Under the pieces are notes generated by a model, which saw only the letters and a list, made by a program, of their open reading frames with translations, had not been told where the DNA came from and did no database searches. From contig CBDFGH010000006.1 in assembly GCA_965247145.1 (NCBI GenBank), positions 168,778-232,777 of the forward strand: a DNA stretch of 64,000 nt, read 5' to 3'. Below are positions 14,101-32,564 of the stretch, piece after piece (position 1 is the stretch's first letter; each line of letters opens with the position of its first letter). Position numbers and translations under genes: made by a program. The stretch is from Rickettsiales bacterium. GTDB lineage: Bacteria; Pseudomonadota; Alphaproteobacteria; Rickettsiales; JAIXRX01.

Positions 14101-15573
14101 CTAGCTTGCGAAGGCCAGCGCGGCCCGGTGCGCAACGGAGAGCAACGGCGCGGGCAGCAGCAGGAAGAACAAGGTCACGATCAGGCAGACCAACACCACG
14201 AAGCGCGAAAGCAACGGCAGCCCGACATCGAAGGCGGCACTCGGCTCATCGAAATACATGATCTTGATGATCTTCAGATAATAGAAGCAGGAAACCACGC
14301 TGGCCAGCACGCCGATGACGGCCAACCCGATCATGCCGCTCTGGATGGCGGCGAGGAAAACGTAGAACTTCCCGAAGAACCCGGCCAGCGGTGGAATGCC
14401 CGCCATGGAAAGCAGGAAGGACGCCATGGCGAAGGCCATCAGTGGATGGGTGCGCGAGAGCCCGGCGAGCTCGGCCGTGTGTTCCACCGGCTCCTCGCGG
14501 CGTGTGAGCAGCAGCACCACACCGAACGCGCCGATGTTGGAAGCGGCATAGATCACCAGATAGATGAACACCGAACTGATCGCCGCCTGCCCGCCCGCAG
14601 CCAAGCCCACCAGCATGAAACCGACATGGCCGATGGAGGAATAGGCCAGCAGGCGTTTCAGCTGCGTCTGCGTAATCGCGCCCCAGGCCCCGACCAGCAT
14701 CGACCCCACCGCCACCAGCACCACGATGCCCTGCCAGAAACCAGGCGCAGCGGCGAAGGGACCGGCAAGCAAGGTGGTCAGCGCCAGCACGGCGGCGATT
14801 TTCGGCGCGGCGGCAAACAGCGAGGTGACCACGGTGGGCGTGCCGCTATAGACATCCGGCGTCCACATATGGAAAGGCACGGCGGAGATTTTGAAGAACA
14901 GACCGACCAGCACCAGCACGAGGCCGAGCAGGAAGGCGAGCTGTTCGGAAGGCACGGTGCCCTGCCCCGGCTTCAAGGCTTCGAGCAGATGCCCGACCGC
15001 GGCATAATCCACGCTGCCGGTGGTGCCGTAGATCAACGAAATGCCGAAGAGCATGAGGCAGGAAGACAGCGAGCCGAGCACGAAATATTTGATGCCCGCC
15101 TCGGAGGATTGCCCGTCATCGCGGCGGATGGCGGCAAGCACGTAGAGCGCCAGGCTTGAAAGCTCGAGCGACATATAGAGCATGAGGAAGCTGGATGCTG
15201 AAATCAGCAGCATCAGGCCCAGGGCGGAGAAGAGCGACAGCACCACGAATTCGTTCGGCGCATCCGGGTGTGAAAGCAGCCAGGGCCGCGCCTGCATCAG
15301 CACCAGCGCGCTGGAAAGCAGCAGCAGGGCCTTGCCATATTGGGTGAAGTCGGAGAGATGCAGCAAACCGTGGAAGGGCGAAGTGTTCACGGGCGTCACC
15401 AGGCTGCACACGCCCGCCGCATAAAGCAGCACCAGCACGGCCAGGGCATGCACCGTATTCTTGCGCGCACCGAAAGCCACGCCCATCAGCAGCACCAAGC
15501 CCGAAAGCGCCAGCAGCATTTCGGGCGCGATGGCGCGCAGATCCAACCAATCGAATATCAAAGCATTGCCCAT
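14101..15573 (-). CDS. nuoN: NADH-quinone oxidoreductase subunit N
   Basis: Polytopic antiporter-like subunit and last nuo gene. ATG 15573 follows a GGGGGG-type SD and sits 1 nt after the nuoM stop; the ORF-track start is 15591. Confidence 0.93.
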   Translation of the reverse strand: MGNALIFDWLDLRAIAPEMLLALSGLVLLMGVAFGARKNTVHALAVLVLLYAAGVCSLVTPVNTSPFHGLLHLSDFTQYGKALLLLSSALVLMQARPWLLSHPDAPNEFVVLSLFSALGLMLLISASSFLMLYMSLELSSLALYVLAAIRRDDGQSSEAGIKYFVLGSLSSCLMLFGISLIYGTTGSVDYAAVGHLLEALKPGQGTVPSEQLAFLLGLVLVLVGLFFKISAVPFHMWTPDVYSGTPTVVTSLFAAAPKIAAVLALTTLLAGPFAAAPGFWQGIVVLVAVGSMLVGAWGAITQTQLKRLLAYSSIGHVGFMLVGLAAGGQAAISSVFIYLVIYAASNIGAFGVVLLLTRREEPVEHTAELAGLSRTHPLMAFAMASFLLSMAGIPPLAGFFGKFYVFLAAIQSGMIGLAVIGVLASVVSCFYYLKIIKIMYFDEPSAAFDVGLPLLSRFVVLVCLIVTLFFLLLPAPLLSVAHRAALAFAS

Positions 15574-15574
15574 A

Positions 15575-17065
15575 TTATTCCCCCCGCCCATGCGGCGGAA
15601 TCAGGTGATGCACCGGCTCAAGCAGGCTCTGCACGGCGGGCGCGATGCCGTCGAAAACCGGTTTCGGATAGATGCCGAGCGCCAGCGTGAGCAGCACCAG
15701 CGGCACGAAGATCAGCATCTCGCGACGGTTCACATCCACCATCGCCTTCAAATCCACCCGCACCAATTCGCCGAACACCACGCGGCGATAGAGCCACAAA
15801 GCGTAAGCCGCGCCCAGCACCATACCGGTGGCGATCAGCAATGCCACGGTGGTGTTTGCCTGAAAGGTTCCGGCGATCACCAGGAATTCGCCCACGAAGC
15901 CGCTGGTGCCGGGCAGGCCCGCGGAGGCCATGGTAAAGAACAGAAAGAGCACCGCATATTTCGGCATCACGCTCACCAGCCCGCCATAGCGCACGATTTC
16001 GCGGGTGTGCAGGCGGTCATAGACCACGCCGACGCAGAGGAAGAGCGCGCCGGAAACCAGCCCGTGGCTGATCATCTGAATCACCGCGCCTTCGACACCC
16101 TGCTGGCTGAAGGAGAAAATACCGGCGGTGACGAAACCCATATGCGCCACGGAAGAATAGGCGATCAGCTTCTTCATGTCCTCCTGCACCAGTGCAATCA
16201 AGGAGGTGACGATGACGGCGACGACGCTGAGCGCGAAGACCAGCCAGGCCAGATCGATCGAGGCTTGCGGCAGCATGGGCAGGCTGAAACGCAGGAAACC
16301 GTATGCGCCCATCTTCAACAGAATCCCCGCCAGAATCACCGAACCGGCGGTGGGCGCCTGCACGTGCGCATCCGGCAGCCAGGTATGGAACGGCCACATC
16401 GGCACCTTCACCGCGAAGGAAGCGAACAGGCCGAACCAGAGCAGGCGCTGAATATGCAGCGGCAGACTGGGCGCGCGTTCGGTGATGGTCGGAATGTCGG
16501 TCGTGCCGAAGGCCATGTAGAAATACAGCACGACGATCAGCAGCAACACAGAACCGGCGAGCGTATAGAGGAAGAATTTATAGGAGGCATAAACGCGATT
16601 ATCCCCGCCCCAGATGCCGATGATGAGGAACATCGGGATCAGCATGCCTTCGAAGAACAGATAGAACAGCACCATATCCAGCGAGCAGAAGACGCCGATG
16701 ACCATGGCTTCCAGCGCCAGGAAGGCGATCATGTATTCGCGCACGCGCTTCTGCACGGAGGTCCAGCTGCAGAGGATGCAGATCGGCATCAGAAGCGTGG
16801 TGAGCAGAATTAGGAACAGCGCCAGCCCGTCGATCCCCAGATGGTAGCGGATGGCTTCGCCGCCGAACCATGCGTGGTTCTCCAGGAACTGGTAACCCGC
16901 TGTGCCATTGTCGAACCCGCTCCACATCAACAGCGAGGCGGCGAAGGTGACGAGCGTGGTGCCGAGCGCGATCCAGCGCGCGGCACAATCATTGCGGCCG
17001 AAAAGCATGATGAGCGCGATGCCGAGGACCGGCAAGGCGAGCAAGGTGGAGAGCAGATACGGCAT
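15575..17065 (-). CDS. nuoM: NADH-quinone oxidoreductase subunit M
   Basis: Antiporter-like subunit starting MPYLLSTLLALPVLG (TAATG overlap with the nuoL stop; alternative ATG 17071). The ORF-track extension to 17329 overlaps nuoL. Confidence 0.93.
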   Translation of the reverse strand: MPYLLSTLLALPVLGIALIMLFGRNDCAARWIALGTTLVTFAASLLMWSGFDNGTAGYQFLENHAWFGGEAIRYHLGIDGLALFLILLTTLLMPICILCSWTSVQKRVREYMIAFLALEAMVIGVFCSLDMVLFYLFFEGMLIPMFLIIGIWGGDNRVYASYKFFLYTLAGSVLLLIVVLYFYMAFGTTDIPTITERAPSLPLHIQRLLWFGLFASFAVKVPMWPFHTWLPDAHVQAPTAGSVILAGILLKMGAYGFLRFSLPMLPQASIDLAWLVFALSVVAVIVTSLIALVQEDMKKLIAYSSVAHMGFVTAGIFSFSQQGVEGAVIQMISHGLVSGALFLCVGVVYDRLHTREIVRYGGLVSVMPKYAVLFLFFTMASAGLPGTSGFVGEFLVIAGTFQANTTVALLIATGMVLGAAYALWLYRRVVFGELVRVDLKAMVDVNRREMLIFVPLVLLTLALGIYPKPVFDGIAPAVQSLLEPVHHLIPPHGRGE

Positions 17066-31593: not shown

Positions 31594-32178
31594 TTAGCGC
31601 CGGATGGTGCCGGTGCGGCGAATTTTCTTCTGCAATTGCAGGATGCCGTAGAGCAACGCCTCGGCGGTCGGCGGGCAACCGGGCACATAGACATCCACCG
31701 GCACGATGCGGTCGCAGCCGCGCACCACGGAATAGGAATAATGGTAATAGCCGCCGCCATTGGCGCAGCTGCCCATGGAAATCACATAGCGCGGCTCGGC
31801 CATCTGGTCGTAGACCTTACGCAAAGCCGGGGCCATTTTGTTGCAGAGCGTACCCGCCACGATCATAACGTCCGACTGCCGGGGGCTGGGGCGAAAGACG
31901 ACGCCGAAACGGTCCATATCGTAGCGGCTGGCGGCGGAATGCATCATTTCCACCGCGCAGCAGGCGAGGCCGAAAGTCATGGGCCACATGCTACCCGTGC
32001 GGGCCCAATTCACCAGCTTGTCGAGATTGGCGACGACGAAGCCCTTGTCGTTGAATTCGTCGAAGACGGTTTGCAGCACGCCTTCCTGCGCCGCGCCGGG
32101 CAGCAACGCGCCGCCGGGCGGCGAGATGACCGAGCCTTGGGCGCTGGTGTTCAAACTTTGGGACTGTTCCATAAGCAA
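31594..32178 (-). CDS. nuoB: NADH-quinone oxidoreductase subunit B
   Basis: PSST-type motifs [21 protein letters not shown] and VPGCPP; 194 aa. Confidence 0.96.
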
Positions 32179-32195
32179 CTATCGCGCAGACGTGG

Positions 32196-32564
32196 TTATT
32201 CCCACTCCAGCGCGCCCTTTTTCCATTCGTAAATAAAGCCGATCGTCAGCACCCCGAGAAACACCATCATCGACCAGAAACCATACACGCCGATTTTGCC
32301 CAGCGTGACCGCCCAGGGAAAGAGAAACGCCACTTCGAGATCGAAGATGATGAAGAGGATGGAGACCAGGTAAAAGCGCACATCGAACTTGCCACGCGCA
32401 TCGCCGAAGGTGTCGAACCCGCATTCGTAGGCGGAGAGTTTTTCGGTATCCGGATTCTTTGGCGCCAGCACCACCGGCAGCGCGACCATGACGAGTGCCA
32501 GCCCGCCCGCAATAACGAGGAAAATCAGAATCGGCAAATACGACGCCGCAACAAAGCCTTCCAT
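32196..32564 (-). CDS. nuoA: NADH-quinone oxidoreductase subunit A
   Basis: ND3-like 3-TM protein with SAYECGFD motif; first gene of the array. Confidence 0.95.

Follow-up and report, generated by a model that had tools for sequence, protein, structure and literature searches.

Conserved genes for predicted exported, cysteine-rich proteins at fixed junctions of a Rickettsiales complex I operon

Here we analyse the operon for respiratory complex I (nuo) in a stretch of 64,000 nucleotides (nt), called the window below, from a Rickettsiales bacterium (assembly GCA_965247145.1, contig CBDFGH010000006.1, positions 168,778 to 232,777). Eight extra open reading frames (ORFs) on the operon strand, denoted i1 to i8, lie at four nuo junctions, namely C/D (i1-i3), E/F (i4), F/G (i5-i7) and I/J (i8), and seven of the eight, i1-i7, are real genes. 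Comparison with relatives indicates that i1-i5 are an old, vertically inherited, lineage-specific set, and that a hicBA toxin-antitoxin pair (i6, i7) and a hairpin after nuoF are recent additions. The first-pass annotation of this DNA had treated the inserts as one layer, and it had overlooked a trait shared by the five conserved ones, all of which are predicted to be exported or membrane proteins. The explanation towards which we lean, with modest confidence, is that i1-i5 are envelope genes riding the essential nuo operon.

For about 30 years, unidentified reading frames (URFs) have been known within the complex I operons of alphaproteobacteria, and most of them have found no explanation. 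The nuo cluster of Rhodobacter capsulatus contains urf1-7 and the nqo cluster of Paracoccus denitrificans contains URFs as well; the clusters of Rhodobacter and Paracoccus carry such frames at F/G and I/J too. Urf1 is also called protein-3h or protein-O. The literature agrees with the first annotation that URFs in these clusters are an established phenomenon (PMC13066640, PMC9036352). In the Rhodobacterales, Urf1 is encoded at nuoE/nuoF, is translated and inserted into the membrane, and assembles into the light-harvesting 1-reaction centre complex (LH1-RC), not into complex I (PMC13066640). Descriptions of Urf1 give a U-shaped transmembrane hairpin that may or may not bear a compact C-terminal domain, while urf7 is described as a gene for an S-adenosylmethionine methyltransferase (PMC13066640, PMC9036352). 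The frames in the window resemble these URFs in being same-strand, non-nuo ORFs within a canonical A-to-N operon, and in having lineage-specific products with poor sequence conservation. Their content, in contrast, is unrelated as judged by the URF descriptions, and consists of five predicted exported, Cys-rich proteins plus the toxin-antitoxin pair. What is new is thus the specific set of conserved proteins of this kind, with three families known essentially from nuo junctions alone, and in addition the recognition of a DUF3298 gene at E/F in two lineages and a gain-and-decay series of promoterless hicBA within nuo.

All 14 Nuo subunits (NuoA-NuoN) are encoded at 14101-32564 on the minus strand, with nuoA to nuoN collinear and nuoC and nuoD as separate genes. 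Each protein is matched by the NCBIfam model of its own subunit (E about 1e-32 to 1e-254, mostly above the curated cutoffs), in agreement with the complete A-to-N order, running from 32564 down to 14101, that had been annotated. Insert ORFs had been claimed at five junctions; they were found at four. The coordinates of all eight were exact, and they are as follows.

30193-30921, minus strand: i1, 242-amino-acid (aa) protein with a predicted N-terminal transmembrane anchor, a 4-Cys module and a C-terminal 2-Cys module
29862-30191, minus strand: i2, 109-aa predicted signal-peptide protein with a C-terminal 2-Cys module as in i1
29425-29865, minus strand: i3, 146-aa predicted membrane protein with 3-4 transmembrane segments and a conserved W-R-C-x-x-N motif
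26743-27615, minus strand: i4, 290-aa predicted signal-peptide protein with a putative divergent DUF4163/DUF3298 (RsiV/PdaC-like) fold and 4 invariant Cys
24736-25410, minus strand: i5, 224-aa predicted signal-peptide protein with 8 Cys and a C-terminal Rap1a domain at aa 116-214
24511-24720, minus strand: i6, 69-aa HicB-like antitoxin, N-terminal domain only, after a 15-nt spacer following i5
24312-24518, minus strand: i7, 68-aa HicA toxin, Pfam PF07927, 53.3 bits against a gathering score (GA) of 27
20153-20485, minus strand: i8, doubtful, a possible small membrane ORF of 110 aa or shorter in the AT-richer, 472-nt nuoI/nuoJ spacer

The frames i1-i7 are called proteins in the source assembly, with identical boundaries. 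They are separated from their neighbours by -8 to +15 nt, except for the 47-nt, hairpin-bearing nuoF/i5 spacer. The junction overlaps and gaps first listed (ATGA, GTGA, 1-nt and 7-8-nt) are all exact in the junction sequences: there are 1-nt gaps at 30192 (i1/i2) and 26742 (i4/nuoF), an 8-nt gap at 27616-27623 (nuoE/i4) and a 7-nt gap at 24305-24311 (i7/nuoG), while i3 has its GTG start within the GTGA overlap with i2 (29862-29865) and shares an ATGA overlap with nuoD (29425-29428). Purine runs resembling Shine-Dalgarno sequences precede most of the starts. The lengths of the ORFs were compared with chance by shuffling each spacer 2000 times and scoring the longest same-strand ORF. The longest observed frames are 242 aa at C/D (P=0.0025), 290 aa at E/F (P<0.0005), 224 aa at F/G (P=0.002) and 110 aa at I/J (P=0.01).

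The G+C content at third codon positions (GC3) falls into tiers, with 0.71-0.84 for the nuo genes, 0.60-0.72 for i1-i5 and 0.56-0.61 for i6-i8 (0.59-0.61 for i6 and i7). Export was judged by a hydropathy scan, not by a dedicated signal-peptide predictor. It gave a hydrophobic signal or anchor segment at the N-terminus of i1, i2, i4 and i5, three or four transmembrane segments in i3, and no hydrophobic segment in i6 and i7. Each of i1-i5 contains 3-8 Cys. Neither i1-i4 nor i8 matched a Pfam or NCBIfam family above threshold.

The extra ORFs could in principle be spurious or decaying frames in expanded spacers, or independent transcription units between the nuo genes. We consider this very improbable, given the ORF lengths beyond chance, the Pfam domains in i5 and i7, the homologs of i1-i7 at the same slots with conserved Cys, and the purifying selection on i4, i5 and the first 47 codons of i6; for independent units, moreover, spacings of -8 to +15 nt are too small for promoters or terminators. 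What speaks for this possibility is that hicB is degenerate in one relative (L087, see below), that consensus scans leave promoters of other than the sigma-70 type possible and, for i8 only, that the frame is uncalled and has a low GC3, no homolog and an AT-richer spacer.

The gene status of i8 is accordingly doubtful, and it could be no gene at all, so that seven of the eight annotated frames are supported as genes. It encodes two hydrophobic segments and has the lowest GC3 of the inserts (0.56). It is not among the called proteins of the source assembly with any of the six start variants tried, it has no obvious ribosome-binding site, the gaps on its two sides are 67 and 72 nt, and no homolog is present in the 268-nt I/J gap of L085, the sole relative covering nuoI/nuoJ. 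That spacer in L085 (14340-14630) contains an uncalled hydrophobic frame of about 50 codons (…FAFMICMAILCILGIIQFLIT) with no detected similarity to i8, which may be a positional analog.

Close relatives of the locus were found by protein searches in metagenome assemblies, mostly on short contigs. Their nuo regions are arranged as given below, where letters denote nuo genes and numbers in brackets the lengths in aa of the ORFs between them.

L081: C-[355][108][137]-D-E-[282]-F
L082: E-[282]-F
L085 (2.3-Mb contig, whole operon): A-B-C-[210][146]-D-E-[309]-F-[Rap1a 242]-G-H-I-268 nt-J-K-L-M-N-birA
L086: D-E-[312]-F-[Rap1a 230]-G
L087: F-hairpin-[Rap1a 224]-[truncated hicB, 50 aa]-G
L088: A-B-C-[298][124][288][294]-...
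L089: B-C-[200]-D-E-[at least 168]
L090: C-[204]-D

Every member of the i4, i5 and Cys-module families on a readable contig occupies the corresponding nuo junction, and the junction spacings in L081 and L085 are likewise tight. The number and architecture of the ORFs at C/D vary between the relatives, from 1 to 4 ORFs. The ORF-by-ORF comparison of related nuo loci that had been suggested as a check has a divided outcome: i1-i5 are conserved at the same junctions, in as many as nine metagenomic contigs, hicBA is not conserved, and i8 has no counterpart in the one relative covering its junction. Scans of metagenome contigs with the i4 alignment and with the Rap1a alignment gave no match. A 42-aa "cluster representative" of NuoG (P0009) was rejected as a clustering artefact from an unrelated context.

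Between these relatives and the window, Nuo proteins have 66-98% identity (73-96% for the genes flanking inserts), the closest relative being L087, with 98% identity over the NuoG N-terminus. The inserts are less similar: the identities between window and relatives are 28-40% for i1, 45-54% for i2, 44% for i3, 25-58% for i4 and 56-80% for i5. For the two well-conditioned pairs, the ratio of non-synonymous to synonymous substitution rates (dN/dS) is 0.065 for i4 (L081/L082) and 0.14 for i5 (window/L087), to be compared with 0.045-0.06 for NuoF. Since these ratios are well below 1 and the identities yet far below those of the Nuo proteins, the inserts are constrained, fast-evolving genes, with purifying selection where it is measurable (i4, i5 and the first 47 codons of i6).

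The rates are not uniform among the lineages. Judged from nuo genes, the window, L081 and L082 lie at about equal distances from one another, with synonymous divergences (dS) of 0.69-0.79. For i4, in contrast, L081 and L082 have 88% identity to each other but only 58% to the window. The dS between the window and L081 reaches 1.43 in i4 and 3.6 in i3, with saturation in i2. The C/D and E/F cassettes of the window thus exceed the flanking nuo genes in divergence from L081/L082 at both synonymous and non-synonymous sites, which suggests either a burst of evolution or an exchange of cassettes between lineages. Such a burst or exchange would suit an arms-race function.

Two of the relatives show further peculiarities. 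In L088 (GCA_965189445.1, contig CBCZHO010000124.1, 1-7425), nuoA-B-C and the C/D cassette are followed by no nuoD; past the cassette there is an erpA-like gene on the other strand and then an HD-domain gene, which points to a split of the operon at C/D or to a misassembly of the contig. The 288-aa and 294-aa ORFs of this cassette are paralogous, Cys-rich and secreted, with no Pfam match. In L085, paralogous ORFs of 399 aa and 382 aa without Pfam match lie directly upstream of nuoA (482-2893), and they have no counterpart in the window.

We now consider the individual inserts, beginning with C/D. The start of i1 is 14 nt past the nuoC stop, and its product has a hydrophobic segment at aa 14-32 and 7 Cys. 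The description of i1 and i2 as a paralogous Cys-module pair is borne out by a BLASTP match of 3e-14 over the common C-terminal module, so that i2 is, on sequence grounds, a paralog of i1. This module, of about 60 aa, would be a novel disulfide module: its profile has nine representatives among 1.84 billion proteins, the family gave no significant match to the PDB in sequence and profile searches, and it carries one C-x30-C pair, not the twin Cx9C of CHCH-type proteins. Homologs of i1 are present at the nuoC/nuoD junction of L081, L085, L088, L089 and L090, and i2 has orthologs in L081 and L088 that are 48-54% identical. A 102-aa ORF at C/D of a more distant genome (L002, introduced below) was also considered as a Cys-module homolog, but this could not be demonstrated (probability 20%).

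The i3 protein has a 44% identical ortholog in L081. An i3-like transmembrane domain is in addition fused N-terminally to a Cys-module protein in L081 (355 aa) and in L088 (298 aa), and this Rosetta-stone pattern indicates a functional link between i3 and i1/i2. Another option considered, that of i3 as a DsbB-like redox partner, was dropped, as a single Cys (in W-R-C) is kept across the orthologs and there is no CxxC pair.

The E/F insert i4 had been left unrecognised. Among 5.8 billion clusters its family is represented by just 5 members, every one located at nuoE/nuoF, and searches of the PDB with the family by sequence and profile gave no significant match. An AlphaFold2 model built from the five-sequence alignment is of moderate confidence, with a predicted local distance difference test score (pLDDT) of 67.9 and a predicted template modelling score (pTM) of 0.64. 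With this model, the top six PDB matches in Foldseek are all of DUF4163/DUF3298 type, with E from 1.5e-6 to 2e-3 and probability 1.0; they include 3cyg, 5jen (RsiV-lysozyme), 4e72 (PA4972) and 3s5t (BF2082), and the TM-scores are 0.41-0.61. The predicted fold is thus similar to that of the DUF4163/DUF3298 proteins, among them the RsiV extracellular domain, the PdaC N-terminal domain, PA4972, BF2082 and Mpt64.

A second line of evidence comes from L002, the metagenome-assembled genome (MAG) UBA6178, whose NuoG is 60% identical to that of the window. A 261-aa signal-peptide ORF in its nuoE/nuoF slot passes Pfam DUF3298 (29.7 against GA 24.1) and matches PdaC weakly, and an hhalign comparison of the i4 family with this ORF gave a probability of 95.8% and an E of 7.6e-9 over 219 columns. 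Because of the fold matches and the alignment to this Pfam-passing ORF, we assign i4, with moderate confidence, as a highly diverged member of the DUF3298 family, and the E/F slot would then be occupied by a DUF3298-type gene in a clade wider than the lineage of the window. There are also differences. Compared to the UBA6178 protein, i4 does not have the canonical GxxHG-type motif, and compared to the RsiV anti-sigma factors it has a plain cleavable-type signal segment in place of an anti-sigma plus transmembrane region, and no sigV partner. RsiV itself is a lysozyme receptor that binds lysozyme (PMC5014341).

Besides the 261-aa DUF3298 protein at E/F, the UBA6178 operon (748-9154) has three other non-nuo ORFs, of 102 aa at C/D, of 116 aa at D/E and of 243 aa at H/I, the last for a SIMPL/DUF541 protein; signal or anchor segments are present in all four. 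Exported proteins within nuo are therefore not unique to the lineage of the window.

The annotation of i5 as a Rap1a/Tai4-like protein holds, as it passes the gathering score of Pfam PF18602 (Rap1a) with 46 bits against 27.7. A hydrophobic, signal-like segment is found at aa 3-21, and the three homologs, which are 80%, 56% and 57% identical, each lie between nuoF and nuoG and each contain PF18602. Structure prediction, which had been put forward as a check on the inserts, was informative for i4, with its DUF3298-type fold at pLDDT 67.9, but not for i5, for which the AlphaFold2 model from a four-sequence alignment has a pLDDT of 44 and is unusable. The founding members of the Rap1a/Tai4 family neutralise the amidases Ssp1/Tae4 of type VI secretion systems (T6SS; PMC3852654, PMC3695027). 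To these immunity proteins i5 is similar in the family profile match, the predicted export and the Cys content, but it is twice their size owing to an extra N-terminal half, it has no adjoining Tae4/Ssp effector or T6SS gene, and it is fixed at nuoF/nuoG in four lineages. No T6SS genes are present among the window ORFs inspected. The idea that i5 arose by internal duplication, with its N-terminal half related to the Rap1a half, is not supported (hhalign probability 2%), a C-x(n)-C-x-A-Y motif being all that the two have in common.

On the basis of these families, the inserts could form an orphan periplasmic array of immunity proteins or inhibitors against cell-wall-degrading toxins (T6SS amidases, muramidases, lysozyme), expressed constitutively via the nuo promoter and evolving in an arms race. 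This would be a sub-case of the passenger explanation favoured above, and we judge it unlikely. The Rap1a match of i5, with its amidase-neutralising founding members (PMC3852654, PMC3695027), and the resemblance of the i4 model to lysozyme-bound RsiV and other DUF3298 proteins (PMC5014341) would fit such an array, as would the predicted export and Cys-richness of i1-i5 and their very fast divergence; the high dS of i4 (1.43) and i3 (3.6) relative to nuo (0.69-0.79) is compatible with allelic replacement or episodic diversification. However, the usual Rap1a/Tai4 context of an adjoining effector or T6SS gene is missing, dN/dS in the well-conditioned pairs (0.065-0.14) is well below 1, and the position of the inserts is stably inherited whereas immunity islands are typically patchy. 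In addition, i1-i3 resemble no known immunity family, and the DUF3298 fold is functionally heterogeneous.

The second layer is represented by i6 and i7. These had been proposed to be a toxin-antitoxin pair, and for the toxin this is clear both in Pfam and in the PDB, where i7 matches solved HicA structures (1whz at 8.6e-8, 4c26 and 6g26) with the Gly-Ser-His (RGSH) motif aligned. The antitoxin is less certain. The similarity of i6 to HicB is weak, with 17.3 bits for Pfam HicB_lk_antitox (below GA 27) and E 0.067 for the PDB HicB structure 9svk; it has no C-terminal DNA-binding domain, and there is no promoter-like minus-strand site in the 15-nt spacer upstream. The two genes overlap by 8 nt (ATGGCTAA). 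The pair is thus similar to HicAB type II systems in the HicA domain, the small overlapping upstream partner and the weak HicB-like similarity, but it differs from them in being antitoxin-first, in the 69-aa antitoxin without DNA-binding domain and in having no promoter or operator of its own.

In the relatives, hicBA is absent from L085 and L086, and hicA is absent from L087 too. In L087 a truncated hicB remnant of 50 aa, 72% identical to i6, is left, with the first 47 codons surviving and hicA deleted. Because of this distribution and its GC3 of 0.59-0.61, against 0.71-0.84 for nuo, hicBA appears to be recent. The short upstream spacer and the missing DNA-binding domain imply that it would rely on read-through from nuo, and the pair is most readily understood as a selfish insertion that needs nuo transcription and is already decaying in a sister lineage.

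The hairpin after nuoF belongs to a family of dispersed palindromes with GTCATCCC...GGGATGAC termini, found at 12384-12472, 21065-21151, 25426-25451 and 22198-22237. The copies within the operon are the following, the first two described as resembling repetitive extragenic palindromes (REP), the second also miniature inverted-repeat transposable elements (MITE).

25426-25451, minus strand: REP-like hairpin GUCAUCCCAGC-loop-GCUGGGAUGAC in the 47-nt nuoF/i5 spacer, -21.8 kcal/mol, z -6.1
21065-21151, minus strand: nested REP/MITE-like palindrome in the nuoH/nuoI spacer, -55.5 kcal/mol, z -6.3
22198-22237, minus strand: palindrome in the nuoG/nuoH spacer with a GTCATTCCC end, -17 kcal/mol, z -1.5

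Hairpins had been annotated at all three places. Those after nuoF and at H/I are significant, whereas the one at G/H is present but no better than shuffles. None of the three is followed by a U-tract. A similar hairpin at the post-nuoF place is present in L087 only and absent from L085 and L086. The copy outside the operon, at 12384-12472 downstream of coaX, has -85.8 kcal/mol. Read through, the palindromes encode a "PAQAGIH...IPAFAGMT" peptide, which is visible in an over-long nuoI ORF.

As for expression, a scan for sigma-70-like promoters gave 7 matches against 7.8 expected, with one on the operon strand, inside nuoN, and a scan for terminator-like sequences gave 27 against 20 +/- 3.7 expected, none of them flanking an insert. 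These simple consensus scans give no clear excess of promoters or terminators over chance at the insert borders. Together with the tight spacing, which is conserved, this makes co-expression of the inserts with nuo a reasonable assumption, and they are likely co-transcribed.

More distant loci were collected by a scan of GTDB with NuoG, which gave at least 80 alphaproteobacterial nuo loci; among the matches listed, the best NuoG identity is 62%. Also among the matches listed, no tblastn homolog of any of the eight inserts is found in 80 of these loci, the Rhodospirillales-type operons are compact and without inserts, and the Hyphomicrobiales and some MAGs have unrelated inserts at C/D, D/E, E/F, F/G and H/I. 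The junction inserts of alphaproteobacteria include GFA, DUF3291, pentapeptide, SIMPL and DUF3298 proteins and small transmembrane ORFs. In the Hyphomicrobiales, the C/D junction holds GFA in Bosea and Consotaella, and the F/G junction holds DUF3291 in Bauldia, a pentapeptide-repeat protein in the Stappiaceae and, in Mesorhizobium and Hoeflea, an ORF of 228-287 aa whose C-terminus is HHH-like; at H/I there is a conserved 79-aa ORF with two transmembrane segments. A 550-730-nt E/F "insert" of this order was rejected as a separate gene, being mostly a C-terminal extension of NuoE; in these loci (L030, L034, L044, L020, L033 and others) NuoE has 379-493 aa.

The history and role of the inserts can then be pictured as follows. 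In the old layer, genes for exported, disulfide-bonded envelope proteins would have become fixed at three peripheral-arm junctions (C/D, E/F and F/G), with a core of one gene at each, of the Cys-module type at C/D, DUF3298-like at E/F and Rap1a-like at F/G. Duplication or elaboration at C/D would have led to i2 and i3, giving membrane-anchored Cys-module proteins that may work with the polytopic i3. More recently, a promoterless hicB-hicA pair would have entered between i5 and nuoG, and REP-like palindromes the F/i5, G/H and H/I spacers; the i8 spacer is so far seen in the window alone. The inserts would owe their transcription to read-through from the nuo promoter and their translation to coupling or re-initiation, and the products of i1-i5 would then be exported to the periplasm or the inner membrane. 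They would not be catalytic parts of complex I, but envelope proteins that exploit the constitutive expression and the deletion-resistance of an essential operon.

This passenger explanation, to which we give somewhat more belief than disbelief, is favoured for three reasons. In other alphaproteobacteria these junctions are occupied by functionally unrelated genes; Urf1 at E/F assembles into LH1-RC and not into complex I (PMC13066640); and the structure of Paracoccus complex I models no periplasmic subunit (PMC11522691). In that structure, at 2.3 A, there are 14 core subunits plus NDUFS4, NDUFS6, NDUFA12 and PIMT, and these four supernumerary subunits all bind on the hydrophilic (cytoplasmic) side (PMC11522691).

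It is important to point out that a number of observations weigh against it. The insert families are exclusive to nuo junctions and are kept across a NuoG identity of 75%, which accessory factors of complex I would predict as well. Co-transcription with nuo is deduced from spacing and simple consensus scans. The close relatives come from metagenome assemblies only, so the true phyletic spread is uncertain, and this applies also to the GTDB scan. As regards the envelope role, i4 has no Pfam match at E<=0.1, the DUF3298 and PdaC profiles included, and i5 no significant match in the PDB by sequence or profile, the solved Rap1a/Tai4 structures included. No T6SS effector, sigV or hydrolase gene adjoins i4 or i5, and the DUF3298 fold occurs also in proteins of other roles, such as Mpt64. 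It is by family and fold resemblance, then, that a hydrolase-binding or envelope-protective role of i4 and i5 is hinted at.

Several of these facts could be read in another way, with i1-i5 as lineage-specific accessory or assembly factors on the periplasmic face of complex I, for example disulfide-bonded clamps of the membrane arm or chaperones for the insertion of membrane subunits, for which the operon would keep stoichiometry and timing. Such factors would explain the confinement of the families to nuo junctions, the retention of the slot between lineages with NuoG only 75% identical, the purifying selection on the inserts and the conservation in relatives of their tight coupling to nuo genes. 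The fusion of an i3-like domain to a Cys module in L081 and L088 implies a membrane-anchored periplasmic assembly, and there is a precedent in mitochondrial complex I, which has the disulfide-bonded subunits NDUFA8 and NDUFS5 on the side of the intermembrane space, their absence in Paracoccus being offset by loop extensions (PMC11522691). On the other hand, the inserts diverge several-fold faster than Nuo (25-58% against 73-96% identity), their copy number and architecture vary among relatives (1-4 ORFs at C/D), and the nearest Rhodospirillales-type operons among the matches listed do without them. Furthermore, no URF embedded in nuo has yet been shown to be a complex I subunit, since Urf1 goes to LH1-RC (PMC13066640) and the Paracoccus structure contains no such subunit (PMC11522691). 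Neither Rap1a nor DUF3298 proteins are known to be linked to respiration, and the modules are not of CHCH type. We regard accessory factors as rather unlikely for these reasons.

The comparison with mitochondria can be carried one step further. Supernumerary subunits such as NDUFA8, NDUFS5 and NDUFB7 are small, fast-evolving and disulfide-bonded and lie on the side equivalent to the periplasm, as predicted for the inserts, but there is no homology, and the modules in the window are not twin-Cx9C CHCH. That i1-i5 could be an independent bacterial invention analogous to these subunits of the intermembrane space is an idea that we find improbable.

Under either explanation, the locus is an unusually clean case of URFs, with families that are at fixed nuo junctions, predicted to be exported, under purifying selection and fast-evolving, two of which have characterised members that bind cell-wall hydrolases. 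If i1-i5 are passengers, they show how operons that are essential and constitutively transcribed can shelter envelope or defence genes as well as selfish toxin-antitoxin modules. As accessory factors, on the other hand, they would represent the first additions to a bacterial complex I on its periplasmic side.

The 14 nuo genes between which the inserts lie have the following coordinates and NCBIfam matches.

32196-32564, minus strand: nuoA, NuoA models, E 6e-32 (below equivalog cutoffs)
31594-32172, minus strand: nuoB, NF005012 NuoB, 274.7 bits
30936-31580, minus strand: nuoC, NF004733 NuoC, 311.6 bits
28244-29428, minus strand: nuoD, NF004739, 639 bits
27624-28244, minus strand: nuoE, NuoE, 232-237 bits; TAATG overlap with nuoD
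25458-26741, minus strand: nuoF, NF010120, 810 bits
22241-24304, minus strand: nuoG, TIGR01973, 738 bits
21156-22175, minus strand: nuoH, NF004745, 521.6 bits
20553-21044, minus strand: nuoI, NF004539, 306.7 bits
19457-20080, minus strand: nuoJ, NF005164, 263 bits
19123-19455, minus strand: nuoK, NF004323, 157 bits
17065-19119, minus strand: nuoL, TIGR01974, 847 bits
15575-17071, minus strand: nuoM, NF004499, 752 bits
14101-15573, minus strand: nuoN, NF004440, 534 bits

The nuoA product is 88-93% identical to NuoA of L085 and L088, both of which bear Pfam Oxidored_q4. NuoL contains a His-rich loop (HHKVETTAPVHHHVHGAHCDHAHAHDAHDSHKAH) at about aa 471-516 (window positions about 17572-17709), and a His-rich segment is kept in L085. 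This loop may be the counterpart of the flexible periplasmic TMH14-15 insertion of Paracoccus ND5 (PMC11522691), and it could bind metal.

Downstream of nuoN the operon is followed by birA and coaX, and upstream of nuoA there are genes for tRNA-Asp (33487-33563) and tRNA-Val (33623-33698). Between these and nuoA lies a 231-aa ORF (32678-33373, minus strand) with a GC3 of 0.35 and a local G+C content of 0.40-0.46, which matches Pfam DUF4145 (28.6 bits against GA 23.1). The region looks like a small, horizontally acquired island by the tRNA genes, directly upstream of the nuo promoter region. Elsewhere in the window, a minus-strand run of large ORFs of 556, 689, 583 and 799 aa is found at 47978-55828. 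The 799-aa ORF encodes a type IV secretion ATPase of the VirB4/TrbE type (Pfam CagE_TrbE_VirB, 163 bits), and the run is probably a type IV secretion or conjugative cluster.

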